From assembly GCA_048938105.1 (NCBI GenBank), contig JBHLMN010000012.1, forward strand, positions 128,001 to 192,000: a stretch of 64,000 nt of DNA. Reading direction: 5' to 3'. The notes beneath the pieces were generated by a model. It was not told the DNA's origin, made no database searches, and worked only from the letters and a program-made list of their open reading frames with translations. Below, one piece after another: positions 12,231 to 30,180 of the stretch (position 1 is its first letter; each line of letters starts with the position of its first letter). A program made the position numbers and the translations under genes. This stretch comes from Promethearchaeota archaeon. GTDB taxonomy: Archaea > Asgardarchaeota > Heimdallarchaeia > Hodarchaeales > Hodarchaeaceae.

Positions 12231-13361
12231 CTATAGATCTAAGTTTGACGGTTTATGTTGTGGTAAAAATTCCTGTAAGATAGTGGTACAAGCATTGGTA
12301 TAATCTTCAAATAACTCAAAGAAACGGATATTTTCTTCTAAAAATCTTAAAAACTTTTCTTTTTCTCCATTTTCTTCAATTTTTTCGAGATTTGATTGAA
12401 ATTGAACTTGAATAATTTCTTTAGCGTGAGAAAATATATATCGAAACTGTTTAACAGTGTTGAACAAATTTTCTGTTAAAGTATATTTTATTTGGTAGTA
12501 TTTTCTTCTATCTTTCCGTTTTTTAATTACCTGAAGGATATTGAGTCGGATGAGCGTTTTTAGCGCAACTGAAACGGTTGAACGGCTATAACCAGTGATT
12601 TTTATTATGTAATCTTGTGTAAGTGGTTTTTCTTCTACAAAAAATAATAAACCTATCATTACAAGTTCTTTCTTCTTACCGACAGCTGCGGATTGATTAG
12701 CAGCTTGATCTTCAAGAAAATCCTTCTTGATTTTTTCAAGACTATCTCCTCTAATTAAATCATATTTAGGACTAGGAAAGTTAAAGTTTTTAGCATCATT
12801 CGATGAAATATTGCTAATTAATTGGGAAATTGAATCAGGATCCTTAACAAATCTTTCCACATGATTTTGGAAATATGTTACAGTGAAATGAAAATAGTTT
12901 GAGACTTCCCAATATTCGCTGAGAAATCTCCTCACACGTAAAATTTCGGGATTTTGAGAGGGTAGCGCGTCTAACCTATGGATCAATAGCGGGACTTGTT
13001 CCAAACTGAATTTAGTTACTTCTAAACCTTCTACTAAAAGAGTACGAAAATATATAGCTAGCTTTTGAGGACACTGATACTTTTTATGTTCCCCTTTTTT
13101 TCGAATTTGAAGGACTAAAAATTTACTAGTTGTATCTGTGAGTCTTGAAAGAGTCTCTGAAACAGTTGCTCTGTTTAATTGTGTTAATTTAATTATTTGA
13201 TTTTGATCAAGTGCGTCCCCTTCCATTAGTAAAGCGAATAGAATCCTTACTAGATTTGAATCAAACCAAGTTAATGTCTGCTCCATAAAGATAAGGTAAT
13301 TTCTCTTCATATCTAAGAAAGGTGATTGACTAACAACTGTTTTCATTAAATTCATGTCCAA
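12231..13361 (-). CDS. Transcriptional regulator with two tandem winged-HTH (GbsR/MarR-like) domains
   Basis: LDQNQIIKLTQLNRATVSETLSRL...KKY and LTQDYIIKITGYSRSTVSVALKTL...RKYY. Confidence 0.8.
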   Translation of the reverse strand: MDMNLMKTVVSQSPFLDMKRNYLIFMEQTLTWFDSNLVRILFALLMEGDALDQNQIIKLTQLNRATVSETLSRLTDTTSKFLVLQIRKKGEHKKYQCPQKLAIYFRTLLVEGLEVTKFSLEQVPLLIHRLDALPSQNPEILRVRRFLSEYWEVSNYFHFTVTYFQNHVERFVKDPDSISQLISNISSNDAKNFNFPSPKYDLIRGDSLEKIKKDFLEDQAANQSAAVGKKKELVMIGLLFFVEEKPLTQDYIIKITGYSRSTVSVALKTLIRLNILQVIKKRKDRRKYYQIKYTLTENLFNTVKQFRYIFSHAKEIIQVQFQSNLEKIEENGEKEKFLRFLEENIRFFELFEDYTNACTTILQEFLPQHKPSNLDL

Positions 13362-17761: not shown

Positions 17762-18703
17762 TTAGCTTAATATTTCAATTAATTTGACCAAATCCTCTTT
17801 ATTGATGGCAACAACATCTGCTTCAGGAAATATATTGCGGTTGTTTTCTGAAATTCCCTGTCCTCCGATTGCAATACGAATTTGGTTTTTGAAAACATTA
17901 TGTAAATACTCTAAATTTCGTTTAAGAGTACCAAGATATAACGGAAGGGTAATGGAGATAAATATCCAATCAGGTAATTCAGGAAGATCTTTGATATATT
18001 TGATTAAGGATTGGATGGGTAAAGCTCGCCCCAGATTAATAATCTTGTAATTTAAATCCCGAAGAATATATTCTAAGGCAAATAAACTGAGAACATGTCT
18101 TTCACCTTCTACAGGTACTAAAATGATAATTCCTTTTTCCTCTATATTTTCATTTACTGGTATTCTTGCAACGATTAGCTCTTCAACGCGATTAGAAATA
18201 ATGTGTTCTTCCGCAGTTGAAAGATTCGCTTGAGCCCATTGTACACCGACCTCATGCATTAGTGGTGTGATAAAATCAACAATAAAGGGTGTACTATTAG
18301 GAAACATTGATTCTATGTTTACTGAGAACTCCTCAACATCATAATTTGATGATTTCAGATATCTGATCATTTCTTGTATGGAGGCTAATTTTAAAACAGA
18401 GGGTTTTTCTATTCTTCCTTTCTCCTCAGGCTTCTTCTTTTCTTTTAATATCTCATTCTCATGTATATATAGTTCTTTGATTAGATCATCAGTTAAATAT
18501 ACAACAGTATACCGCCCCCGTTTAAGTGGGCGTCGTTCGATTTCGATATAACCTTGTAAATTTAGTTCTTTTATGGCATTAGAAATTGTTGAACGTTTAA
18601 GATCTAAATTGGATGCAAGTTCAGAAACAGGGACTTCCCTTCCGCGATTTTGCCTTAAGTATCGAAAAATACGATCTCTGGCTGGTAATTGGACATTTTC
18701 CAT
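17762..18703 (-). CDS. Cobalamin-binding transcriptional regulator: winged HTH plus CarH/LitR-type four-helix cap and B12 Rossmann domain
   Basis: wHTH VSELASNLDLKRSTISNAIKEL; W-x9-EH (WAQANLSTAEEH); E-x-H (GERHVLS); NLG..LP, ISIT, IGG; adjacent to crtB. Confidence 0.85.
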   Translation of the reverse strand: MENVQLPARDRIFRYLRQNRGREVPVSELASNLDLKRSTISNAIKELNLQGYIEIERRPLKRGRYTVVYLTDDLIKELYIHENEILKEKKKPEEKGRIEKPSVLKLASIQEMIRYLKSSNYDVEEFSVNIESMFPNSTPFIVDFITPLMHEVGVQWAQANLSTAEEHIISNRVEELIVARIPVNENIEEKGIIILVPVEGERHVLSLFALEYILRDLNYKIINLGRALPIQSLIKYIKDLPELPDWIFISITLPLYLGTLKRNLEYLHNVFKNQIRIAIGGQGISENNRNIFPEADVVAINKEDLVKLIEILS

Positions 18704-18716
18704 AAGGCATTGTTAC

Positions 18717-18749
18717 CTTCTTATTGATATTCTTATGATTTCTTCATGA
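18717..18749. promoter_or_regulatory. Three imperfect tandem 11-bp direct repeats just upstream of the CarH-like gene
   Basis: cttcttattga / tattcttatga / tttcttcatga. Confidence 0.35.
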
Positions 18750-18772
18750 CTTACTCTTATTTTATGAACCAG

Positions 18773-19717
18773 CTAAAGTTTACGAAGGTACTCTAAACGT
18801 ACTTTAGTTGCCAAAATAATCTTTCTTAGTTTAGAAACAACTGCCCGTTGATTTAATATTTGATAATCAATTCTTTTTATCTCATTTAGAATTTCCCCAT
18901 AGACTCTTGAGGCCACTTTTACAGTATAAGCTCCTGCAGGTGGTAATTCCTCAATACCAAGATCAGCTATCTTATAAAGAGCTTTCGCTCGCTCTGATTC
19001 GTAACGAATGAGTGATTTGAGGTTCTCATTCACTTTATCACCCCTTAGATCCTCAATCGTAACCTGATAATCATTCCGAGTTTCTTCTGGTAGATATATT
19101 CGCCCCTTGAGGAAATCCTCTTTGATATCTCTTAATATATTGGTTAATTGCATTGCTCTACCTAGATCTGCAGCTCGTGCTAGAGTTCGTTTTTCTGGAT
19201 TTTTGATGAAGATGTGAGTCATCATTAAACCAACAGTACTTGCAACCCGATACATGTATAAGTCAAGTTCTTCTTCTGAATAGTACTCGGTTTTTATAAG
19301 ATCCATTCTCACACCTTCTATAAGCTCATGCATGTAATTAACTGGAATTTGATGTTTACGTAACGTATCTCCAAAGGCATGAAGGATAGGATTTGTAGAG
19401 CTATATCCATTGGCCAATTTTGTTATAGTACTTTTCAATCGATCAAGTTCAAAATTAATCTTATCAATCGTAATCCCCTTAGGGGCTTCATCAACTATAT
19501 CATCACTTAAACGACATATAGCATAGAGAGCAGCAACGCTTTTACGCTGATCTTCAGGTAAAAATCGACTAGCGAAATAGAATGACTTGCTATGCTCTAT
19601 CATCCAGTCTAGACAGATTTGATAGCTTTCTTCAAGTGTTTCATCCATCAAACTATGTTTAGGTGTCGTACTTTTGGGAAGAAGTTCCCAATCAATTGTT
19701 TTGTGAGTTGAATACAT
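18773..19717 (-). CDS. crtB: Phytoene synthase
   Basis: SKSFYFAS, YAICRLSDDIVDE, YRVASTVG, QLTNILRDIKED..GRIYLP. Confidence 0.95.
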   Translation of the reverse strand: MYSTHKTIDWELLPKSTTPKHSLMDETLEESYQICLDWMIEHSKSFYFASRFLPEDQRKSVAALYAICRLSDDIVDEAPKGITIDKINFELDRLKSTITKLANGYSSTNPILHAFGDTLRKHQIPVNYMHELIEGVRMDLIKTEYYSEEELDLYMYRVASTVGLMMTHIFIKNPEKRTLARAADLGRAMQLTNILRDIKEDFLKGRIYLPEETRNDYQVTIEDLRGDKVNENLKSLIRYESERAKALYKIADLGIEELPPAGAYTVKVASRVYGEILNEIKRIDYQILNQRAVVSKLRKIILATKVRLEYLRKL

Positions 19718-19739
19718 TTTCTAATTCACTTATTAATAT

Positions 19740-19841
19740 TTCATGAATTAGTTCAACTTCATGAATAAACATTTAAATATTTTTCGAATGTAGGTAATCA
19801 ATCAAAAAAGTGTCATTTGTCAAGTAGACATTACTTTTTTG
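19740..19841. promoter_or_regulatory. Divergent crtB/crtI promoter region with palindromes
   Basis: TTCATGAA at 19740-19747 and 19758-19765; TTTAAATA at 19772; 9-bp inverted repeat CAAAAAAGT (19803-19811) / ACTTTTTTG (19833-19841). Confidence 0.5.
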
Positions 19842-19852
19842 GATAAATAAAA

Positions 19853-21436
19853 GTGAGAAAAATGAGTAATGGACATAATAAACGTAATATAGCCTTTGAT
19901 AATAAAAACCCTGAAACGTTTCTCGAATCAGTGGTAATTATAGGCTCTGGGATTGGTGGACTGGCGGCGGGAATACGCCTTCAGACAACAGGAAAATTTA
20001 ATGTTACTATTATAGAAAAACTAGACCAAGTTGGTGGTCGGGCCAGAGTCTTTAAAGATCAAGGGTTTACTTTTGATGGAGGTCCTACGGTAATAACTGT
20101 ACCTGACATTTTTAAGGATTTATTTACTTTACCTGGTCGAAAAATGGAGGATTATGTCGAATTAATACCAGTGGAGCCGTTTTATCGAATCCATTTTAAC
20201 GATGGGACATTTTTTGATTATTCTACTCCGGAAAAAAATATACCTCAAATTGAAAAAGTAAATCCTGAAGATGTAGAAGGATATAAACGCATGCTTAAAG
20301 CAGTTCGACCGATCTACGAGAAGGGGTTCAAAGAATTATCATTTAAACCTTTTAACAAGTTTACTTCAATGCTTAAAGTAGCTCCCTCCCTCATCAAGTT
20401 ACAATCATACCGTTCAAATTATAAATTTGTCTCTAAATATATAAAAAATGAGAATCTCCGAATGGTATTTAGTTTTCACCCTTTACTTATTGGGGGGAAT
20501 CCTTTCTCGGTTCCATCAATTTATAGTCTTATTCAATACCTGGAAAAAGAATTTGGAGTTTGGTTTGTGCGTGGTGGTACAAATGCTTTAGTTCAGGCGT
20601 TAGCAAACTTATTTGAGGAGCTTGGGGGTAAAATCATTTTGAATAGTGAGGTTAAAAAAATTGAAGTTAAAGATAATCAAGTAGAGGGCGTTTTAACTGT
20701 TTCGAATGATTTTTATCCAAGTAAAATCGTAATAAGTAATGCTGACCCCGCTTTTACATACACAAAAATGATTGATGCAGAGTGGCGCAGGAAAAACAGT
20801 GATAAGCGTTATAAAAAAGCGAAATATTCTATGGGATTAGTTGTAATTTATTTTGGAACGAAAAGACAATATCCAAATATGAAACATCACACTATTATTT
20901 TGGGTCCCCGGTATAAAGGACTAATAGAAGATATTTTCAAGAAAAAGATTTTAGCAGAAGATTTTTCGAGCTATTTACATCTCCCCACTCGGACTGATCC
21001 AAGTTTAGCTCCTGAAGGACATGAAGCCTTTTATATCCTGATTCCCGTCCCTCATCAAGATTCTGGTATTAATTGGGAAGAAATGGCTGAACCATTTAAA
21101 CAACGAATCTTTGATTTTCTGAATGAAAATTATCTCCCTGAACTAAAAGAGAACTTAGTGACAGAGCGAATTTTTACTCCTCTAGATTTTGAACGAGACT
21201 ATAATAGCTTTAAAGGATCTGGTTTTTCTGTTGAACCAATTTTTACTCAATCAGCGTGGTTCCGTCCACATAACAAATCTGAAGATATTGATGGTCTTTA
21301 TTTAGTGGGTGCTGGAACCCATCCAGGAGCAGGATTGCCTGGAGTTGTCTCCAGTGCAAAAGTAACCACAGATTTGATCATCAATGGGAAAAATGGATTT
21401 TCAAAAAAACCCTCTGGAATAAGTAATGCTAATTAG
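19853..21436 (+). CDS. crtI: Phytoene desaturase (CrtI family); ATG 19862 is an alternative start
   Basis: IIGSGIGGLAAG, FDGGPTVIT, FHPLLIGGNPF, WFRPHN...LYLVGAGTHPGAGLPGV. Confidence 0.95.
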   Translation: MRKMSNGHNKRNIAFDNKNPETFLESVVIIGSGIGGLAAGIRLQTTGKFNVTIIEKLDQVGGRARVFKDQGFTFDGGPTVITVPDIFKDLFTLPGRKMEDYVELIPVEPFYRIHFNDGTFFDYSTPEKNIPQIEKVNPEDVEGYKRMLKAVRPIYEKGFKELSFKPFNKFTSMLKVAPSLIKLQSYRSNYKFVSKYIKNENLRMVFSFHPLLIGGNPFSVPSIYSLIQYLEKEFGVWFVRGGTNALVQALANLFEELGGKIILNSEVKKIEVKDNQVEGVLTVSNDFYPSKIVISNADPAFTYTKMIDAEWRRKNSDKRYKKAKYSMGLVVIYFGTKRQYPNMKHHTIILGPRYKGLIEDIFKKKILAEDFSSYLHLPTRTDPSLAPEGHEAFYILIPVPHQDSGINWEEMAEPFKQRIFDFLNENYLPELKENLVTERIFTPLDFERDYNSFKGSGFSVEPIFTQSAWFRPHNKSEDIDGLYLVGAGTHPGAGLPGVVSSAKVTTDLIINGKNGFSKKPSGISNAN

Positions 21437-22260
21437 TGGAAGAAATTGTAATGTTAACATATTTCATCTTCCTCCTTTTCTTTATTGTTATACCTTTGAT
21501 GGTAATCAGTTTTTTTTATTATAAGAAATATCGTGGAGGGGAAGAATATCAAAAAACGATGATAAAAAAAATCTTAATTGTGTTAGCGATATTAATAATT
21601 GTAGCTATTACTTATACTACTCCATGGGATAATTTTCTCGTCGAAAATGGCATTTGGTATTATGAGACATCGAAAGTTATGGGTATTTTAATTGGTTTTG
21701 TACCCATTGAAGAATATGGCTTTTTCGTATTGCAGACTCTCTTTATTGGATTGCTATTCGGATGGATTCTGCTTCATAGAAAGAAAATCAGTCATAATCA
21801 GAATAATTTTAGAGTTAATTTACGCCTGATTTCAGCGATTGGGCTACTTATTGTTTGGATTGTAGGATTTCTTGCATTTATTAACAGAATAGAAACTTTA
21901 ACTTATCTGAATTTAATCCTTTTATGGGGAATACCTCCAATAATGATTCAACTGATCTATGGCGCTGATATTCTCTGGTTGTACAATCGAGACCTTATCT
22001 CAGTCATCTCTCTCTCAACTATTTACTTAGCTATTGCAGATACTATTGCGATTGCAGATGGAATCTGGACAATTAGTATAAATACATCAACAGGGATTCT
22101 TTTGGCTGGAGTTTTACCTATTGAAGAGTTTGTCTTTTTCTTGGTCACTAATATATTAATTACTTTTGGATTAACCTTAATGATTGATTCTAGGAGTATT
22201 GATAGATTTCATCAATACTTTTCTAGATTAAAAGAACACAAGTGGAGAAATAAGTTATGA
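21436..22260 (+). CDS. crtY: Lycopene cyclase, fused two-domain CrtYc/CrtYd membrane type; start may be ATG 21451
   Basis: Two cyclase repeats: PWDNFLVENGIW...VPIEEYGFF and ADTIAIADGIW...LPIEEFVFF. Confidence 0.9.
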   Translation: MEEIVMLTYFIFLLFFIVIPLMVISFFYYKKYRGGEEYQKTMIKKILIVLAILIIVAITYTTPWDNFLVENGIWYYETSKVMGILIGFVPIEEYGFFVLQTLFIGLLFGWILLHRKKISHNQNNFRVNLRLISAIGLLIVWIVGFLAFINRIETLTYLNLILLWGIPPIMIQLIYGADILWLYNRDLISVISLSTIYLAIADTIAIADGIWTISINTSTGILLAGVLPIEEFVFFLVTNILITFGLTLMIDSRSIDRFHQYFSRLKEHKWRNKL

Positions 22261-22377: not shown

Positions 22378-22830
22378 ATGTTAAATAACGTAATAGAATA
22401 TCTTAATGAGTCTGTAATACCTTTGCGGCTTTCTGGTACCACTAAATCAGGCTGGCCATTTGTAATGAGCCTTTGGTATGTTTATTTAAATGAAAAAATT
22501 TACTTAGCAACTATAAAATCAGCTAAAGTCGTTGATTATCTTTCTAATAACCCCAAATGTGCTTTTGAAATTGCCAGTGATACTCCACCTTATTGTGGGA
22601 TTCGAGGACAAGCAATGGCAAAAATTATTGAATCTAAGGGGGATGAAATTCTAAAAATCCTTCTAAATCGTTATCTAGGAGGAGAAAATAGTCCTTTAGC
22701 CCGAAGACTGTTGAATCAACGTATACCAGAGGTTGCGATTGAGCTTACTCCTGTTAAAGTGTATCAATGGGATTATAGTAAGCGAATGATTGACTCGATT
22801 GAATTTTCTTCAGTTAAAAAGTGTCCATAA
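22378..22830 (+). CDS. Pyridoxamine 5'-phosphate oxidase-like flavin-binding protein
   Basis: PLRLS..TKSGWPFVMSLWY, NPKCAFEI..D.PPY.GIRGQ. Confidence 0.8.
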   Translation: MLNNVIEYLNESVIPLRLSGTTKSGWPFVMSLWYVYLNEKIYLATIKSAKVVDYLSNNPKCAFEIASDTPPYCGIRGQAMAKIIESKGDEILKILLNRYLGGENSPLARRLLNQRIPEVAIELTPVKVYQWDYSKRMIDSIEFSSVKKCP

Positions 22831-22867
22831 ATAAGAACGATAAAAAAACCAGTAAAAAGGTGATATT

Positions 22868-23287
22868 ATGTCAGATATCAAATATTCTGCTGGAGTATGC
22901 AATATCGGTGACGCTGAAATAAAACAAAGACGTCGATTAGGATATATAGGCATTGGTCTTACTGTGATAGCAATTATTGTATATTTAGGATTGATTTATT
23001 CTATAAAATTAGATCCATTCTTTGGAGTGATTATTTTCATACCTGCTGAAATGTCAGCTATTGGGTTAATTCAAGCTAGGAACAAATTTTGCGCTGCTTA
23101 TGGATTGATTCACCAACAGAACGTTTCCTCAAGCTTAGGCTTAACTGTGAAAATAGGCAATAAAAATTCCCAGAGAAAGGATAGGAACAAAGCTCTTAAA
23201 ATTATTTTTCAATCCCTAGTAATTGCGATTATCATTACTGTTTTTACAGTTATTGGAGGGATTTTGATAGCTCAAAGTATTATTTAG
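22868..23287 (+). CDS. Small membrane protein with CNIG..E..RR and KFC motifs, function unknown
   Basis: Three hydrophobic helices, two Cys; AGGTGA SD. Confidence 0.7.
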   Translation: MSDIKYSAGVCNIGDAEIKQRRRLGYIGIGLTVIAIIVYLGLIYSIKLDPFFGVIIFIPAEMSAIGLIQARNKFCAAYGLIHQQNVSSSLGLTVKIGNKNSQRKDRNKALKIIFQSLVIAIIITVFTVIGGILIAQSII

Positions 23288-23376
23288 GTTTGAATATAGG
23301 TTGAAAAAAAGCATAAGAGATAAATATGAATCAAATCAATATACTCAATCTTAGGGAGAGGATTTTTCCTACTCCA

Positions 23377-24114
23377 TTAAAAAATTCGTCCTAGTGACGC
23401 GTCTAAGATTTTTCCAGTCATTAGAGGAGTAGTTGCAGCAAATTCTATCATTTCATTCAAATCCTTAGGTAATAATGGGTAATTAAGAAGCTGTTTTGAT
23501 ATTAATTTCGATGATAGAACCTCAATTGTTGTACCATTATCCATAGATTTCTTTTCCAATTCTCTATTATGTCGATCCGTAAAAACATATGTAGGAGAAA
23601 CTCCGTTAATTCGAATTTTGGGAGCCAAAACTCTAGCCATTGTACGAATTAAATAGACTAATCCAGCTTTCGCAACTCCATAAGGCATTTTATCCAATGA
23701 AGGTTCATAAGCAGCAGAACTAACGATATGTACTATAGCTCCGCCTTCTATCATAAGTTCAGCTGCCATTCTTGTTAATAAGAAAGCAGATGTTAGATTC
23801 ACATTTATTACACGATTGAAAAATGAAGCATCCACTTCTAATGGATTTTTTGAAGCCAAGGATCCCCCTATATTATTTATCAGAATGTCTATTGATCCAA
23901 TTTTAGTCTGTACCCATTTCTTTACCTTTCTAATTCCTTCCTCGGTTGTGCAATCAGCTGCAATATTATTAATTCCTGGAAAACGATCATTTATCATATT
24001 TAGACTGGATATGAGAACCTCATTATTCTGATTAGAAAGTTTTCTCATAATTGCCTCTCCAATCCCTCCAACAGCAACACCAGTAACTAGAATTTTCTTA
24101 TTTTCGATGATCAT
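23377..24114 (-). CDS. Classical short-chain dehydrogenase/reductase
   Basis: TGVAVGGIG, LINNIG, SS, YGVAK (YxxxK), IRINGVSP. Confidence 0.9.
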   Translation of the reverse strand: MIIENKKILVTGVAVGGIGEAIMRKLSNQNNEVLISSLNMINDRFPGINNIAADCTTEEGIRKVKKWVQTKIGSIDILINNIGGSLASKNPLEVDASFFNRVINVNLTSAFLLTRMAAELMIEGGAIVHIVSSAAYEPSLDKMPYGVAKAGLVYLIRTMARVLAPKIRINGVSPTYVFTDRHNRELEKKSMDNGTTIEVLSSKLISKQLLNYPLLPKDLNEMIEFAATTPLMTGKILDASLGRIF

Positions 24115-24159
24115 GATTAATTTCCTCAGTTATGTTGTTAATGGTTTAATTTATTACAT

Positions 24160-24648
24160 CTAGTCATCTATTTTCAGAGTTTGAGTTTTAAGTAATTTAT
24201 AATTTTTAGGAAATCCCCAATCTTCAATCTTATTGTAACTTGTTTTTTTTGATCGAAAATGTACCCATATTGTTGTACTATCAAGAAGTGGATTAGCATG
24301 GTAATGCTTTTGATCACCATATCGAAAAGCTTCTAGTACTAGGGGTAATTCCTGACGAAAAATTCTATCACGAAACTTTAAAGGGCCAATTCCCCCACTT
24401 ACTTGACAATAGACATGGAGTGAATATACATTTTCGGTTTTCAACCATTCAGCTAACACTTCATCCCGCATTATCCGTGTTTGCCATCCTTTTAGTTGTT
24501 TTTTGTTAAACTCATGGGCAATGGTGAGAAATAAATCTCCTGTCCGATCTGAATGGGTTAATGTATAGCAACGAGGTACTAGAGGAGAATCAATGGTTGT
24601 TGGGGGTATAAATGTAACATTTAGTTTATTTGGGTTTAAGCGATTCAA
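24160..24648 (-). CDS. STAY-GREEN (SGR, Mg-dechelatase family) homologue
   Basis: PRCYTLTHSDRTGDLFLTI, GWQTRIMRDEVLAEW, LHVYCQV, IFRQELPLVLEAFRYGD, WVHF.S...YNKIE.WG. Confidence 0.92.
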   Translation of the reverse strand: MNRLNPNKLNVTFIPPTTIDSPLVPRCYTLTHSDRTGDLFLTIAHEFNKKQLKGWQTRIMRDEVLAEWLKTENVYSLHVYCQVSGGIGPLKFRDRIFRQELPLVLEAFRYGDQKHYHANPLLDSTTIWVHFRSKKTSYNKIEDWGFPKNYKLLKTQTLKIDD

Positions 24649-24674
24649 GGTAGAAATCCTTCTATTTGAAAGAA

Positions 24675-26177
24675 CTAAGTTGTAGATAAATAATAGGGCT
24701 TAGGAGTAGAGCTTATTTTAGTATATGTAAGACTATCTCCAGGAATATCCCTACAAATTTCCTCTAACAGCTTTTTTGACAGCATGTCGAAAAATGGTTG
24801 GATCATAAACCAATAGGCTATCCCAATAAGCCCTTTTGGGACTATTCGAAAAATCTGATGAAGTTCAATTTTTTTGTGATTAATACGCCTTAAACGATAT
24901 CTTAGGATGGTATAACCAGGTAAGATGAAATCTGTATGTAATGTTAATTCTTTCTTTGGAATTTTATTCTGAATTGAAAGAGGAGTCTTTTTCATCTCTC
25001 CCTTGTCCTTAAAACCTTTGAAAAAACCGTTTAGAAAAGCACCAAATTTCCATAAGTATAAATTGATCTGAAAATTTCTATATTTCTCAATCTGAAGTAA
25101 TTTGTTCCACAAATTCTCAGGATTACTAGTTAAAATAGCCTTACGATGATCTTGGAAGACAAATCCTCCAGACCAGGATGGATCCCCTGGAATGTGCCAT
25201 TCAACGGGTAAATCATAATAGCTAGAATAACTTCCGTACCTAAGATACTGTTGGGGGTTTAATGCTAATCGAATTGCTTGTTTATGGTTTAGTAACTTCT
25301 GTGGAATCAATTCTCGTATCCTAAAATCATGACAAACAACCTCATTCTTCATTCCATCTATTAATGGACGAGCTAAAGATGATTGAATGCCTGTAATCAA
25401 TCTTATCCAATAGGAGCTTAGGCTAGGAGTGAAGAAAGGGATAGGGAGAATTAAACGCTTTGGTAGTGCCATAATTTCCACATAACTCTCCATAAACTGT
25501 TTATAAGTGATAATATCTGAACCACCAATATCAAAGGTCTCACCGATTGTTTCTGGTACATCTAAACAGTCAGTTAGATATTTCAGAACATTTCGAATAG
25601 CTATTGGTTGATTTCTTGTTCTAAGCCACTTGGGTGTAATCATAATTGGCAATCTATTGACTAGATACCTCATCATCTCAAAAGCTGCGCTTCCACTCCC
25701 AATAATAATTGCTGCACGTAACGTTGTAACTGGTACTGAACATGAATTCAGTATTCTGGAAACTTCGATTCGAGACTGTAGATGCTTACTTAATTTTTCT
25801 TTTTCGTCCCCTAATCCCCCAAGATAAATAATTCTTTCAATTGCTGCCTTTTCAGCTGCAATTATTGTGTTTTGGGCTGCAATTCTATCAGATCTAATAA
25901 AATCTTTTATTTTTCCTTCCATAGAATGGATTAAATAGTAAACCGAGGAGACTTCTTCCATTGCGTCTTCTAAGGTTTTAATATCGAAAACATTAAGATT
26001 TACCGTTTTCAAATTCCTATGATGACTCCATAATCTCATATTTAGCTTGTCTTTTGACCTAAACCCCACTCGTACAATATATCCTTTCTTTAAGAGTTTT
26101 GGTACAAGTCTGGAACCTATGTAACCTGTGGCCCCAAGTACAAGAACTTCTTTTTGTTTCAAGGGAAATCTACTCAT
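24675..26177 (-). CDS. Atypical SDR/NAD(P)-binding protein with C-terminal DUF2867-like domain (YbjT-like)
   Basis: GATGYIG, YYLIHSM, IIYLGGLG, SKHLQSR.EV, LRAAIIIGSGS; C-terminal PKGLIG.AYW. Confidence 0.88.
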   Translation of the reverse strand: MSRFPLKQKEVLVLGATGYIGSRLVPKLLKKGYIVRVGFRSKDKLNMRLWSHHRNLKTVNLNVFDIKTLEDAMEEVSSVYYLIHSMEGKIKDFIRSDRIAAQNTIIAAEKAAIERIIYLGGLGDEKEKLSKHLQSRIEVSRILNSCSVPVTTLRAAIIIGSGSAAFEMMRYLVNRLPIMITPKWLRTRNQPIAIRNVLKYLTDCLDVPETIGETFDIGGSDIITYKQFMESYVEIMALPKRLILPIPFFTPSLSSYWIRLITGIQSSLARPLIDGMKNEVVCHDFRIRELIPQKLLNHKQAIRLALNPQQYLRYGSYSSYYDLPVEWHIPGDPSWSGGFVFQDHRKAILTSNPENLWNKLLQIEKYRNFQINLYLWKFGAFLNGFFKGFKDKGEMKKTPLSIQNKIPKKELTLHTDFILPGYTILRYRLRRINHKKIELHQIFRIVPKGLIGIAYWFMIQPFFDMLSKKLLEEICRDIPGDSLTYTKISSTPKPYYLSTT

Positions 26178-26189
26178 TCTAAGAGGACA

Positions 26190-26960
26190 TCAATAATCTT
26201 GACGAGCTTTCCAGAAATCACCATAAAAGAAAAATCCAATCAGTTGAGAAAATACGAATATTATTGATATAACTATTCCTAAATACTGTAATATAAGAAT
26301 TTGATTACTATGGAAGATATACAGAGGGATAAAGTTCAATAAGAACCAAATCCACGAAAGAATTGGAGCAGATATGAACATAAGAGATCTTTTCCATTTT
26401 GAAACAGATAAGAAGGAACTCAAATCATATTTTATTCCAAAAATAGGAAGTTTCGTTATAGGTGTCCAAGCTAGCAAGTTTGATTTACGAAATGTGGATT
26501 TGAAAATAAAATAATTTCTAAAGTTTAATCCTAAAAGAAAACCAAATATGCAATGGATTACGGTATGAGAGAGCATAAAGTTTACAAAACTGATTAGAAA
26601 GAACAAAATAACACTAAACCAAAAATCTACAGAAAAATAAAAGGCTAAAAAATAAAGAATTTCTGAGATGAGAACACCAACTGAGAATAGTAAAGTTCCG
26701 ACTTTAATTGAAAATTTTGGAACGTTCCAACTATCGAAGAAGAATTCATCAATTCTCCCTAAAATATCTATTTCTTCCTCTGTTATTTTTACTTTTCGTG
26801 CATATTTTACAGCAGTTTGATATTTTCTCCAATGACTCTTCCGATTTAATGTTCCTGTTTCATATGAATCCTCTAAATCCTTGATATTCCTACTAAAATT
26901 AGTGTTATCCATTTGAGAACCTTCCCTAGAACTGTAGTTCTTATTAGTTATACTTAACAT
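26190..26960 (-). CDS. Orphan membrane protein with HxxxH motif; start may be ATG 26912
   Basis: Four to five TM segments, SHTVIH, ISAP, terminal YGD; co-oriented directly downstream of the heliorhodopsin. Confidence 0.7.
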   Translation of the reverse strand: MLSITNKNYSSREGSQMDNTNFSRNIKDLEDSYETGTLNRKSHWRKYQTAVKYARKVKITEEEIDILGRIDEFFFDSWNVPKFSIKVGTLLFSVGVLISEILYFLAFYFSVDFWFSVILFFLISFVNFMLSHTVIHCIFGFLLGLNFRNYFIFKSTFRKSNLLAWTPITKLPIFGIKYDLSSFLSVSKWKRSLMFISAPILSWIWFLLNFIPLYIFHSNQILILQYLGIVISIIFVFSQLIGFFFYGDFWKARQDY

Positions 26961-27019
26961 TATAATTCTAGTGATCGAGGTTTGAAAATAAAAAGAGGGG
27001 AAGGATCATAATGACCCAA

Positions 27020-27832
27020 TTAAGCAAATATTAACCCCATAAATACAATCCAAGCTAATGCTGATTTTGCAAAGAGGCTTAATAATTGATAACCTCGTTC
27101 TCCATATAGATAATCTTTCCATGGGCCTATTTTCTTATACTGAAGAAACATATTCAAGGCAAAGCTGTTAAAGAAGACGAAATAAACTACTAAGGCAATA
27201 TAGACAAAAGTAGGAACTTCTCGTCCAACTGTGTTAATACTCAAGAATGTATCAAGGATGACGATCCAGGGCATTATTCCAGCTATCCATCCTAGGATAT
27301 AAGGAGCCCAGCTTGTTTTTTCAGTATATTGGTTATAAGTCTCCATTAACAACCCAAACATGTTCATTAATCCATTAAGCACGAATATCAGAGCAAGAAT
27401 CCAAAATTCTAGTATTCCAAAAGCTAAAGCAATGAATATGATCATCACTGAACTGGAAAAAGCATACTCATACCAACGTACTGGATTCATTTCTTTCTTT
27501 AAATTGGTAACATATTTGTTATATAATGGAAAAGCAATCAGTAAATGAGCAATAGCTGACATTAGAAGAAAACTAGCAAGCAGGATACCTGCAATGTTTT
27601 CAAAAGTGAAAAAAACTTCGGGGATAGGCTCAAGAACTGGACGAGTACCAGTTAATTCTTTTATTCCTAAATACGACCTATAAATGTCGATTTTGAAGTT
27701 TTTTATTTCATCAATTACTAAACTCAGAGCAAATATAACTGTTGCTTGCACTAAGTGCAAGATACCCATGGCTATATTGAATTTCCGGAGATAGGAAAAT
27801 GATATTTTTGACTTTTCAATGTTAGTTGACAT
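27020..27832 (-). CDS. heR: Heliorhodopsin
   Basis: LRKFN..MGILHLVQA, SAIAH, NPVRWYEYAFSSS (counterion Glu), MNMFGLLME, YLYGERGY..LSLFAKSALAW (retinal Lys in SLxAK); AGGAGG SD. Confidence 0.97.
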   Translation of the reverse strand: MSTNIEKSKISFSYLRKFNIAMGILHLVQATVIFALSLVIDEIKNFKIDIYRSYLGIKELTGTRPVLEPIPEVFFTFENIAGILLASFLLMSAIAHLLIAFPLYNKYVTNLKKEMNPVRWYEYAFSSSVMIIFIALAFGILEFWILALIFVLNGLMNMFGLLMETYNQYTEKTSWAPYILGWIAGIMPWIVILDTFLSINTVGREVPTFVYIALVVYFVFFNSFALNMFLQYKKIGPWKDYLYGERGYQLLSLFAKSALAWIVFMGLIFA

Positions 27833-28051
27833 TAAGCAACCTCCTATGGATTTAGACAGAAGAGTCCTTCTTTATATATTCATTATGATAATTAAAACGT
27901 AAATCACCAATAAATCTAGATCTAGAATTAATGACTTGAATCAGGATGAAGTTCTATTACTGAAAAAATAAAGAATCTATTATAATGTGAACCTAAAACT
28001 TGCTGATTGATGAACTAGTACTTCTAAAATCACAAAGAATGGTGAAGGCTG

Positions 28052-28828
28052 ATGTCTCTTACAAAACAAAAACAATTTTTGATTTATGGTAACATCTTGA
28101 GCTTTTTATTAACTATCGTGATGAATTCTTTAGCCAACATCCTTCCTTTGAATGGAAAAACAACTGCAGAACTCAGTGACTCTTTCCCTAACTTATTTGT
28201 CCCCGCTGGGTATGTTTTTAGTATCTGGGGATTGATCTACATTTTATTAGCAATTTTCACGGTTTCCCAAGCCCTTCCCAAGTATAGAGAGGAGGATGTT
28301 ATTGAAAAAATCTCCTATTTCTTTATTATAAGCAATCTGGCTAATTCATCATGGATTGTATTTTGGCACTTTGAAATAATAATCGCATCCTTATTGGTTA
28401 TGTTGATACTCCTTGTATCTTTAATACTAATCTATACCCGATTAGAAATTGGAAAGAAGCCCGTGAGTGAAAAAATTAAGATCACTTCTCATATCCCATT
28501 TAGTGTTTACCTGGGATGGATTACTGTTGCAACTGTTGCAAATGTTACAGCTTTACTTGTATCAATAAACTGGGATGGTTTTGGCATAAGTGAAGTCATC
28601 TGGACTGCAGTTGTAATAAGTGTTGCAACAATAATTGCACTAGTTATCGTATTCACCCGGAAAGACTATGCCTACGTTCTTGTCCCCGTCTGGGCTTTTA
28701 TAGGAATAGCAGTAAAGCAATTAAATACTCAAAACGATGTTGTTATAATTTCTGTTATAGCAGCAGTTATTTTAGTCATAACATTGCTTGTTAGACTTTC
28801 ATTGGATTTAGTTCAGAATCGAAAATGA
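28052..28828 (+). CDS. TspO/MBR-related tryptophan-rich membrane protein
   Basis: NSLANILP.NG.T..ELSD..PNLFVPAGYVFSIWGLIY, N.SW..FWH, PFSVYLGWITVAT. Confidence 0.8.
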   Translation: MSLTKQKQFLIYGNILSFLLTIVMNSLANILPLNGKTTAELSDSFPNLFVPAGYVFSIWGLIYILLAIFTVSQALPKYREEDVIEKISYFFIISNLANSSWIVFWHFEIIIASLLVMLILLVSLILIYTRLEIGKKPVSEKIKITSHIPFSVYLGWITVATVANVTALLVSINWDGFGISEVIWTAVVISVATIIALVIVFTRKDYAYVLVPVWAFIGIAVKQLNTQNDVVIISVIAAVILVITLLVRLSLDLVQNRK

Positions 28829-29709
28829 ATGATAATAATTTTAGATCACTAATTACTTCACTCATAATAATATGCATTGCTGCATGTCTTGCACTCATTG
28901 GTAGCCACAGGGGTATAACTGTTTTTGGTGGAATACCAGTATTTGCACTTGGAGTAGCTATTGCCTTTATAATTCAATGGATTGCGTTTATACCTGCTTA
29001 TATCAAAAGAACAGAGAAATTTTTCGATTTGACTGGCTCTTTGACTTACAGTATTGTGATTATTTTTTCAGTTGTTTTGAGTTCTGAAATCAATATACGA
29101 TCTATTTTACTGATGTTTTTGGTCTTGATCTGGGCGATTCGCCTTGGTATGTTCTTGTTTAGGAGAATACTGAAAGAGGGTGAGGATAAACGCTTCAAGG
29201 AAATCAAAGAATCAGGTTCGCGTTTTCTATTAACTTGGACTCTTCAAGGTTTGTGGGTTAGCTTTACATTAGCAGCTGCATTGGCTGCGATCACAGTAAA
29301 ACAGAGGGTAGAATTTGGCGTCTTTGGTTTAATTGGTCTTCTGGTTTGGATCATAGGCTTTGGATTTGAAGCTGTTGCAGACTATCAGAAGAGTAAATTC
29401 AGATCTATTCCTGAAAACAAAGGAAAATTTATTACTACTGGATTATGGTCGATATCACGACATCCCAATTACTTTGGAGAGATCCTCCTATGGATCGGTA
29501 TTGCAATCATTGCACTTCCAACACTTCAAGGTTGGAGATGGCTAACACTAATTTCTCCTATTTTTGTCACATTATTATTGACCAAGGTTAGTGGTATTCC
29601 ATTACTTGAGAAACATGCAGATGAAAAGTGGGGTGGTCAGGAGGAATATGAGCAATACAAAAGTAAGACTCCAGTATTAATCCCAAGGCCATTCTTCAAA
29701 TCAAATTAA
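28825..29709 (+). CDS. DUF1295 / steroid 5-alpha-reductase-like membrane protein
   Basis: FFDLTGS, WAIRLG, EDKRF, WTLQGLW, ADYQK, GLWSISRHPNYFGE; ATGA overlap with the upstream gene. Confidence 0.9.
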   Translation: MNDNNFRSLITSLIIICIAACLALIGSHRGITVFGGIPVFALGVAIAFIIQWIAFIPAYIKRTEKFFDLTGSLTYSIVIIFSVVLSSEINIRSILLMFLVLIWAIRLGMFLFRRILKEGEDKRFKEIKESGSRFLLTWTLQGLWVSFTLAAALAAITVKQRVEFGVFGLIGLLVWIIGFGFEAVADYQKSKFRSIPENKGKFITTGLWSISRHPNYFGEILLWIGIAIIALPTLQGWRWLTLISPIFVTLLLTKVSGIPLLEKHADEKWGGQEEYEQYKSKTPVLIPRPFFKSN

Positions 29710-29841: not shown

Positions 29842-30180
29842 TCAAACCAATGCATCTGATGGCCACTCTATATGAATAATAAAGGATTTTGCTGTTGCAC
29901 GGTAATATTTAAGAAAAAATCCATATTCATTTTGAACCTTTCGAGTAAGAAACGCTAAATCCTTTGAAACTAGGTCATCAAGATATCTTTTAATGGTACC
30001 AGGGTTTAGTTCGGTTTTTTGTTTCAATTCCATTATATTTAACTCCTTCTCGAGTAATAAATTGAGTATAATCTGCTTTTTTTGGTGGAATAATACTGGA
30101 ACTACAGAGGGATCATTGATTACCTTTACTTTAGGAATATCAGAATTCTCATCTGAATCTTCAGGTTTATCATAGAACAT
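29842..30180 (-). CDS. ArsR-like winged-HTH regulator
   Basis: ILNLLLEKELNIMELKQKTELNPGTIKRYLDDL...KYYRATA. Confidence 0.85.
   Translation of the reverse strand: MFYDKPEDSDENSDIPKVKVINDPSVVPVLFHQKKQIILNLLLEKELNIMELKQKTELNPGTIKRYLDDLVSKDLAFLTRKVQNEYGFFLKYYRATAKSFIIHIEWPSDALV

Follow-up and report, generated by a model that had tools for sequence, protein, structure and literature searches.

A candidate cobalamin-dependent light switch for carotenoid genes in a Hodarchaeales archaeon

Positions 128,001 to 192,000 of contig JBHLMN010000012.1 (assembly GCA_048938105.1), a stretch of 64,000 nucleotides called the window here, come from a Promethearchaeota archaeon of the order Hodarchaeales. One open reading frame in it (17762-18703, reverse strand) gives a stop-free translation of 313 amino acids that joins a winged helix-turn-helix (HTH) head to a CarH-type cobalamin-binding domain, directly behind crtB, the phytoene synthase gene. 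The protein, referred to below as the regulator, is likely to be an oligomeric repressor that is loaded with adenosylcobalamin (AdoCbl) in the dark, silences the crtB-regulator unit, and is released by light. It is probably a previously undescribed archaeal light switch for pigment synthesis. With some reserve, we also favor a bolder statement: that this is the first transcription factor of Archaea to act as a photoreceptor, that it belongs to the Asgard lineage closest to eukaryotes, and that it works as an AdoCbl-loaded winged-helix oligomer that bridges two palindromic boxes around a TBP/TFB-type start and is released by green light without a bis-His lock. What is observed is the domain make-up of the protein, the conservation of its motifs, its linkage to carotenoid genes, a set of conserved boxes and their position, and a gene for an adenosyltransferase.

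Why would such a protein matter? To our knowledge, B12-based light sensing is established in bacteria only, and every DNA-binding B12 photoreceptor studied so far carries a MerR head and acts at sigma-factor promoters. If the proposal is right, B12 photochemistry extends to Archaea by way of a winged helix and a promoter with a TATA box and B recognition element (BRE), and a B12 light switch is native to a eukaryote-like basal transcription machinery. Hodarchaeales would then sense light at the level of transcription, and there would be direct genomic evidence that some Heimdallarchaeia, which are closely related to eukaryotes, live in light and answer it with changes in transcription. A compact green-light switch with a defined, short operator might also suit archaeal or eukaryote-like transcription systems.

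A CarH-type B12 fold behind a winged-helix head

The first-pass annotation of the window, made from the sequence alone, had read the protein as a CarH-type photosensor module with a W-x9-EH cap motif and an ERHVLS lower-ligand motif. Both motifs are present. WAQANLSTAEEH, at residues 156-167 (nucleotides 18203-18238), is an exact W-x9-EH match, reading in full GVQW156-AQANLSTAE-E166-H167 with G153 ahead of the Trp (GVQW). ERHVLS occupies residues 201-206 (nucleotides 18086-18103) within VEGERH203VLS, and H203 is the candidate lower axial His. S250-I-T lies 43 residues after ERHVLS and GGQG (280-283) another 27 residues on, so that the classic cobalamin motif D/ExHxxG/P...SxT/V...GG, as quoted in PMC9304148, is complete, with Ser206 at the G/P position as the annotation had pointed out. 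The signature of light-responsive B12 domains defined with SignatureFinder (GxxW, EH, GxxH, and GxxxP; PMC11796333) is present in all four of its elements: G153-V-Q-W156, E166-H167, G200-E-R-H203, and G225-R-A-L-P229, the last being the GRALP loop (225-229).

How well are these residues kept? In an alignment of 20 relatives, with identity down to 37%, the cap motif residues W156, E166, and H167 are invariant, as are G153, H203, S250, and GGQG280-283; P229 is nearly so, and G200 and G225 are mostly retained. The residue at the position of Ser206 varies (G, P, S, T, N, A, or V). The most conserved part of the head is the recognition helix, with invariant I40, S41, N42, A43, K45, and L47, together with the wing, with invariant E56, R58, L60, G63, and Y65. 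The linker differs in length and sequence from one relative to the next.

The head was expected from the annotation to be an ArsR/MarR-like winged HTH joined to the rest by a charged linker, and so it is. Pfam HTH_11 scores 31.5 bits against a cutoff of 25, HTH_27 scores 23.0 bits against 22.2, and MarR_2, at 26.5 bits, is just below its cutoff of 27; the winged-helix models, ArsR-type ones included, fall on residues 7-72. An AlphaFold2 model of the whole protein, built on the 20 relatives, has a mean predicted local distance difference test (pLDDT) score of 84. It comprises a three-helix bundle with a beta-hairpin wing at residues 8-70 (helices at 8-18, 26-33, and 37-49, the last being the recognition helix with the nearly invariant TISNAIKEL, and wing strands at 53-70), a linker that contains KEKKKPEEKGRIEK and is predicted to be disordered, a four-helix bundle at 109-180, and a Rossmann fold at 192-312. 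Folded alone, the head reaches a pLDDT of 87 with a helix-helix-helix-wing topology and matches 1ub9, 2mlg, 2p4w (Phr), 1s3j, and others, that is, archaeal and bacterial winged helices of the ArsR, MarR, PadR, and Phr types. A MerR assignment of this domain, named in advance as an outcome that would speak against the photosensor idea, did not emerge: the 313-residue protein has no Pfam match to a MerR model, and none of the 50 best fold matches for the head is a MerR structure. A MerR-type head is ruled out on both counts, and the domain is a winged HTH of the ArsR/MarR/PadR/Phr type.

The C-terminal part, in turn, resembles known B12 photoreceptors. Foldseek matches it at probability 1.00 to photocobilin 8j2w, CtMerR 8jbs, CarH 5c8d, and the B12 domains of MetH, and likewise to 8c3x and 3whp. 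A sequence search of PDB chains aligns W156 and E166/H167 with those of CtMerR 8jbs, and Pfam B12-binding_2 and B12-binding match weakly over residues 140-304. With the fold of CarH, CtMerR, and photocobilin and the full light-responsive signature, the description as a CarH-type photosensor module is supported, and each computational test applied to the first-pass reading favored it.

Would such domains pair? Two copies of residues 105-313 were folded together, alongside three controls; the pair scored 0.72 and the best control 0.00. A score at this mark is attained by 20 of 30 proteins whose solved structures are one-chain pairs, and by 1 of 23 whose solved structures are single chains. Contacts agreed to at least 96% between runs, and the pLDDT of the partner was at least 88. 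In the predicted interface, bundle residues 162-185, H167 among them, face Rossmann residues 220-242 of the other copy, the GRALP loop among them, and P229 comes to lie beside the other copy's EH motif. A head-to-tail dimer of B12 domains is thus the predicted arrangement, with the proviso that the score may reflect likeness only, because CarH and CtMerR dimers have already been solved.

The family to which the regulator belongs is narrowly distributed. A word-indexed search returned 32 relatives and a profile search 60, and all those with an organism name are labeled as Asgard metagenome-assembled genomes (MAGs). When 1.84 billion cluster representatives were searched exhaustively with a profile, 17 clusters (50% identity) came up at E <1e-30, beyond which scores fall sharply to about 1e-25 and the match is confined to the B12 part. 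Among 399 species-representative genomes of the phylum, 15 have a member: the window's own, 12 of 20 further genomes of its family-level group, and 2 of 12 genomes of one other family in the same class, with none elsewhere. The family is therefore confined to two families of one Asgard class. Five members (P0004, P0019, P0022, P0024, and P0038) bear NCBI labels of Hermod-, Odin-, or Thorarchaeota; these labels are probably loose and are not relied on, because of the distribution just described. Some Hodarchaeales relatives, about 381 amino acids long, have two copies of the winged-helix head in tandem before the B12 domain (Table 1).

Is the combination of domains exceptional? The first-pass annotation had proposed domain shuffling, which the non-MerR head bears out, but among uncharacterized CarH-type B12 domains the case is not a special one. 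In the 71 nearest B12-domain relatives beyond the family (alignment A3), XRE-type HTH_3 heads (20/71) are more frequent than MerR heads (14/71), and other partners are PAS/GGDEF/EAL/HD enzymes. The G, W, E, H, and ligand His are invariant across all 71. The B12 part thus belongs to the CarH-type photosensory clade, in which head swapping is common. We know of no HTH_3-headed CarH-type B12 protein that has been characterized. The same invariant set includes a protein of 285 amino acids from Nitrososphaerales (Thaumarchaeota; P0074/P0206 cluster; L028:5001-5858), whose B12 domain is among the nearest relatives and which may be another archaeal B12 light sensor. It has a short N terminus of about 45 residues and 133 members in its 90%-identity cluster, and its gene adjoins NAD-epimerase and NmrA-like genes.

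Conserved boxes at the putative crtB promoter

Carotenoid genes had been proposed as the target of the regulator, and the gene order is in keeping with this. In the window, crtB and the regulator gene follow one another on the same strand with a gap of 69 bp, divergent from crtI and a lycopene cyclase gene. Of 16 distinct related loci, 14 have the same arrangement, with the regulator gene after crtB on one strand; L026, the most distant full-length member (E 1e-61), is among the 14, and most of them also have the divergent crtI and cyclase genes. The two genes thus appear to form a single operon.

What might the regulator bind? The operator candidate, which is new in the present analysis, is a pair of exact TTCATGAA boxes in front of crtB (Table 1). 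Directly upstream of them, in the crtB direction, is ATATTTAAATG, by its sequence a good archaeal TATA box, and the TATA/BRE-like stretch is the putative crtB promoter. In the Hodarchaeales loci, a conserved ATATTTAAATA precedes box 1 by 3-5 bp. The layout in relatives is a recurring one: TATA, 3-5 bp, box, 10-11 bp, box, 25-40 bp, crtB start. Distant loci whose spacers are otherwise unalignable (L003, L006, L007, L005/L021, L015/L019, and L026) still have between two and four boxes, with a spacing that is mostly 18-19 bp.

These boxes are strongly concentrated. Of the 32 exact TTCATGAA boxes in 14 loci, window included (173 kb), 22 are located within 120 bp upstream of crtB, against an expectation of 0.1; the nominal Poisson P of about 5e-44 overstates the significance because the 14 loci are related. 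A k-mer count made with no prior motif, on one crtB upstream region from each of nine distinct lineages, found TCATGAA in all nine and TTCATGAA in eight, and the top words at all lengths are parts of ACTTCATGAAGT. The 5.85-Mb genome contains 354 exact TTCATGAA boxes and two exact pairs spaced 17-20 bp apart, one of which is the pair at the crtB promoter. The other (contig C4:94786-94813, equivalent to L022:3287-3314; 20-bp spacing) lies about 230 bp upstream of a gene for an Lhr-type DNA helicase (939 amino acids) with no TATA box next to it; it may be a second target or chance and is not claimed as part of a regulon.

A second, weaker pair is found in the spacer between crtB and the regulator gene. 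It is one of 43 pairs in the genome with at most two mismatches in total, and it is kept in L001, L011, and L012 and similar in L007, while the intervening bases vary from locus to locus. In L027, where the regulator has no crt neighbor, an exact ACTTCATGAAGT palindrome occurs about 45 bp upstream of the regulator gene, a sign that the box goes with the regulator and not with crtB. At 19813-19823, on the crtI side of the main spacer, TCATTTGTCAA resembles, by eye and in close relatives only, TCATTTGTTAA of L011 and TGATTTGTTAA of L001; this element may be a site for another factor.

The position of the boxes is suggestive of repression. Archaeal transcription is expected to start about 25 bp past the TATA box, so the two boxes flank the expected start. 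Archaeal repressors such as Phr have sites over the start or abutting TATA/BRE, where they block the recruitment of polymerase. In L015 and L019, the boxes are upstream of the TATA box and abut it, and there they would also interfere with TBP/TFB.

Table 1. Features of the window, with positions in the window unless a locus is named
Feature	Position	Strand	Evidence or content
Regulator gene: winged HTH, linker, and CarH-type cobalamin-binding domain	17762-18703	-	Open frame, Pfam/NCBIfam matches, AlphaFold2 model, relatives
Winged HTH, residues 1-86	18446-18703	-	Pfam HTH_11, fold matches
K/E-rich linker, predicted disordered, residues 87-104	18392-18445	-	pLDDT <50
Four-helix bundle with GxxW and W-x9-EH, residues 105-185	18149-18391	-	Sequence, alignment, model
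Rossmann-type B12 domain, residues 186-313	17765-18148	-	Motifs, Pfam, alignment, fold match
Second, weaker box pair, crtB-regulator spacer	18743-18768	.	Gene strand TTCATAAA-N10-GTCATGAA, 18 bp apart
crtB (phytoene synthase), upstream gene of the crtB-regulator unit	18773-19717	-	PF00494 1.7e-73
Main operator candidate: two exact TTCATGAA boxes, 18 bp apart	19740-19747, 19758-19765	.	Between TATA box and crtB start
Putative crtB promoter core: TATA box TTTAAATA, A-rich BRE-like CGAAAAA before it	19771-19789	-	Read from sequence
crtI, divergent	19853-21436	+	TIGR02734 1.7e-181
Lycopene cyclase, divergent	21436-22260	+	TIGR03462 2.1e-32
Gene cluster beside the crt genes	22378-29709		PNPOx-like, 139-aa protein, SDR, Staygreen-family, NmrA/DUF2867, 256-aa protein, heliorhodopsin, TspO-like, DUF1295
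Staygreen-family gene of the cluster	24160-24648
Gene for the 256-aa protein of the cluster	26190-26960
Heliorhodopsin gene of the cluster	27020-27832
Tandem-head relatives	L017:6001-7134, L018:6001-7134, L020:2472-3605, L016:485-1615

Beside the crt genes is a further cluster that is plausibly tied to light or pigment. It includes the only heliorhodopsin gene of the genome, 8 kb from the regulator gene. TspO-like, DUF1295, and NmrA-like genes and an uncharacterized membrane-protein gene are often near the regulator in related loci; the first three, together with the gene for the 256-residue protein, recur by the regulator in L014, L015, L017, L018, and L019. The neighbors at 26190-26960 and 22868-23287 have no Pfam or NCBIfam matches.

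A proposed mechanism and its alternatives

How might the switch work? AdoCbl binding, light sensitivity, box binding by the regulator, and repression are four properties that we infer, and they can be joined as follows. In the dark, the C-terminal domain would hold AdoCbl, with H203 as the lower ligand and W156 and E166-H167 capping the adenosyl group. The B12 domains would pair head-to-tail, possibly going on to a dimer of dimers, and through this pairing the winged-helix heads would come to sit on TTCATGAA boxes spaced at 18-19 bp. With the boxes occupied just downstream of the crtB TATA box, on both sides of the expected start, RNA polymerase recruitment would be blocked, the crtB-regulator unit would be off, and no phytoene would be synthesized. 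Green or blue light would cleave the Co-C bond, loosening the oligomer and vacating the boxes, whereupon carotenoid synthesis would begin, along with the production of more regulator. Autoregulation may come in through the weaker pair, which directly precedes the regulator gene. Since Ala and not His follows the Trp, a bis-His light state is not to be expected. As for the cofactor, AdoCbl is plausibly available: marker genes put the genome at 99% completeness, and it has a gene for a CobA-type ATP:cob(I)alamin adenosyltransferase (202.7 bits), with ten further B12-domain matches elsewhere.

Several points weigh against this mechanism. The regulator scores 25.7 bits with Pfam B12-binding (PF02310), under the cutoff of 32.1, which the family members P0035 (33.4 bits) and P0064 (67.4 bits) exceed. 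The NCBIfam CarH equivalog NF052513 gives 27.1 bits against a cutoff of 400, over residues 141-240 alone. The Ala after the Trp is replaced in relatives by T, S, E, or Q where it is not also A, and the chemistry of the light state may differ from that of Thermus CarH, as in CtMerR, which shows that a missing His is compatible with photoreception. Two family members, L008 and L027, have the regulator away from crtB. For a winged-helix dimer, a palindrome of 8 bp is short, the 18-19-bp spacing is not a whole number of helical turns, and a factor other than the regulator could bind the TTCATGAA boxes. By inspection, crtI's own likely TATA box (about 19835-19850) has no boxes. Nor did the genome scan find a box pair at the divergent heliorhodopsin/TspO promoter (27833-28051), one of three binding regions proposed in the first-pass annotation; the other two, 19718-19852 and 18704-18772, do hold candidate boxes. 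A lone one-mismatch box in 27833-28051, its partner absent by eye as well as in the scan, was dismissed as an operator. Finally, neither a PduO-type adenosyltransferase (PF01923) nor a photolyase FAD-binding domain (PF03441) was found in the genome.

Could the protein sense B12 itself? As a chemical cobalamin sensor, it would tune crtB to the supply or form of B12, and light would have no physiological role. B12 domains do also act as dark cofactor binders, those of MetH rank high in the fold search of the B12 part, and many Asgard MAGs derive from sediments. NCBIfam, moreover, yields weak partial matches to corrinoid proteins and to CarH, the one to MtgC (8.7e-07) being as good as that to CarH (2.3e-06). 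We nevertheless consider a chemical sensor quite unlikely, given the invariant W-x9-EH cap, the complete light signature, and a carotenoid target and nearby heliorhodopsin that have no evident link to B12 supply. MetH lacks this cap, which covers the adenosyl group (PMC8156234). It is harder still to credit a regulator that has no use for B12 at all and keeps the B12 fold as a scaffold for oligomerization or partner binding, in the manner of CarA or class II LitR. In CarA, the Trp of W-x9-EH has been lost along with residues that flank it (PMC9304148), whereas here the invariance of W156, E166, H167, H203, SxT, and GG points to selection for cofactor binding. That bacterial derivatives of this kind exist is nonetheless clear, from CarA (PMC9304148) and from class II LitR, which reportedly works with a LOV protein (PMC9758184), and the Pfam B12-binding score under its cutoff would fit such a protein.

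A last alternative accepts the B12 photoreceptor and assigns the TTCATGAA boxes to another factor, or makes the regulator a light-dependent activator. The boxes accompany the regulator in all lineages, even in L027 where it has no crt neighbor; an invariant recognition helix is paired with an invariant box; and the boxes lie where archaeal repressors bind, among them Phr, whose structure 2p4w is a top fold match of the head. All of this makes the alternative unlikely, against which it can be said that binding of the boxes by the regulator rests on inference, that several other winged-helix regulators are encoded nearby (12231-13361 and 29842-30180), and that in L015 and L019 the boxes come before the TATA box and not after it. 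Repression by a dark-state, AdoCbl-loaded oligomer is the reading carried into the comparisons below.

Relation to known systems

The full-text literature searched contains no description of an archaeal winged-helix/B12 photoreceptor. PMC11796333 lists the HTH outputs of light-responsive B12 domains in general terms only, and a search of its main text and one supplementary file for archaeal and Asgard terms found none. An Asgard rhodopsin paper (PMC12137139) reports two function-unassigned genes in the crtB/crtI operon of the Kariarchaeaceae pan-genome. One of them is probably a regulator of the present family, because P0025 and P0027 come from Kariarchaeaceae and L007 shows the same layout; if the proposal holds, it would account for that gene.

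The closest bacterial counterparts are the CarH/LitR regulators of Thermus thermophilus, Myxococcus xanthus, and Bacillus megaterium (5c8d and 5c8e). They share the plan of a head, a flexible linker, and an AdoCbl domain made of a four-helix bundle together with a Rossmann fold, the W-x9-EH cap, the lower axial His motif, and an association with carotenoid genes; their head-to-tail pairing of B12 domains and repression in the dark are predicted for the Asgard protein too. The differences lie in the head, which is MerR in CarH/LitR and an ArsR/MarR/PadR-type winged helix here, in the archaeal host with its TATA/BRE promoter, and in the operator, which consists of 11-bp direct repeats there and, as a candidate, of short palindromic TTCATGAA boxes 18-19 bp apart here. 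T. thermophilus CarH has a His directly after the Trp, with which it forms its bis-His light state; the Asgard protein lacks that His. Sequence similarity to CarH chains is very low (phmmer E of about 0.005-0.01). The regulator is not a member of the MerR-type CarH/LitR family, since its head is not of the MerR type and its score is far from that of the curated CarH model.

CtMerR of Chloracidobacterium thermophilum (8jbs and 8jbt), which is bacterial and has a MerR head, unlike the Asgard protein, likewise has no His after the Trp in its B12 domain. Its crystal structure places the neighbor's GxxxP loop beside the EH motif, as in the predicted Asgard dimer, and in the head-to-tail geometry of CarH and CtMerR the neighbor's Pro helps to cover the adenosyl group. 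The best match of the B12 part is the photocobilin of Saccharothrix syringae (8j2w; sequence E 4.2e-07, Foldseek 3.8e-09). Photocobilins, however, have a biliverdin-binding domain, control enzymes, and carry no DNA-binding head.

The head has its own set of counterparts. CrtR of Corynebacterium is a MarR-type winged-helix regulator of crt genes that is reported to respond to isoprenoid pyrophosphates (PMC5401885 and PMC6739363) and carries no cobalamin domain. Pyrococcus Phr (2p4w) and PH1061 (1ub9) have the same head fold as the Asgard protein without a cobalamin domain, and archaeal winged-helix repressors such as Phr likewise have their operator over or beside the core promoter.

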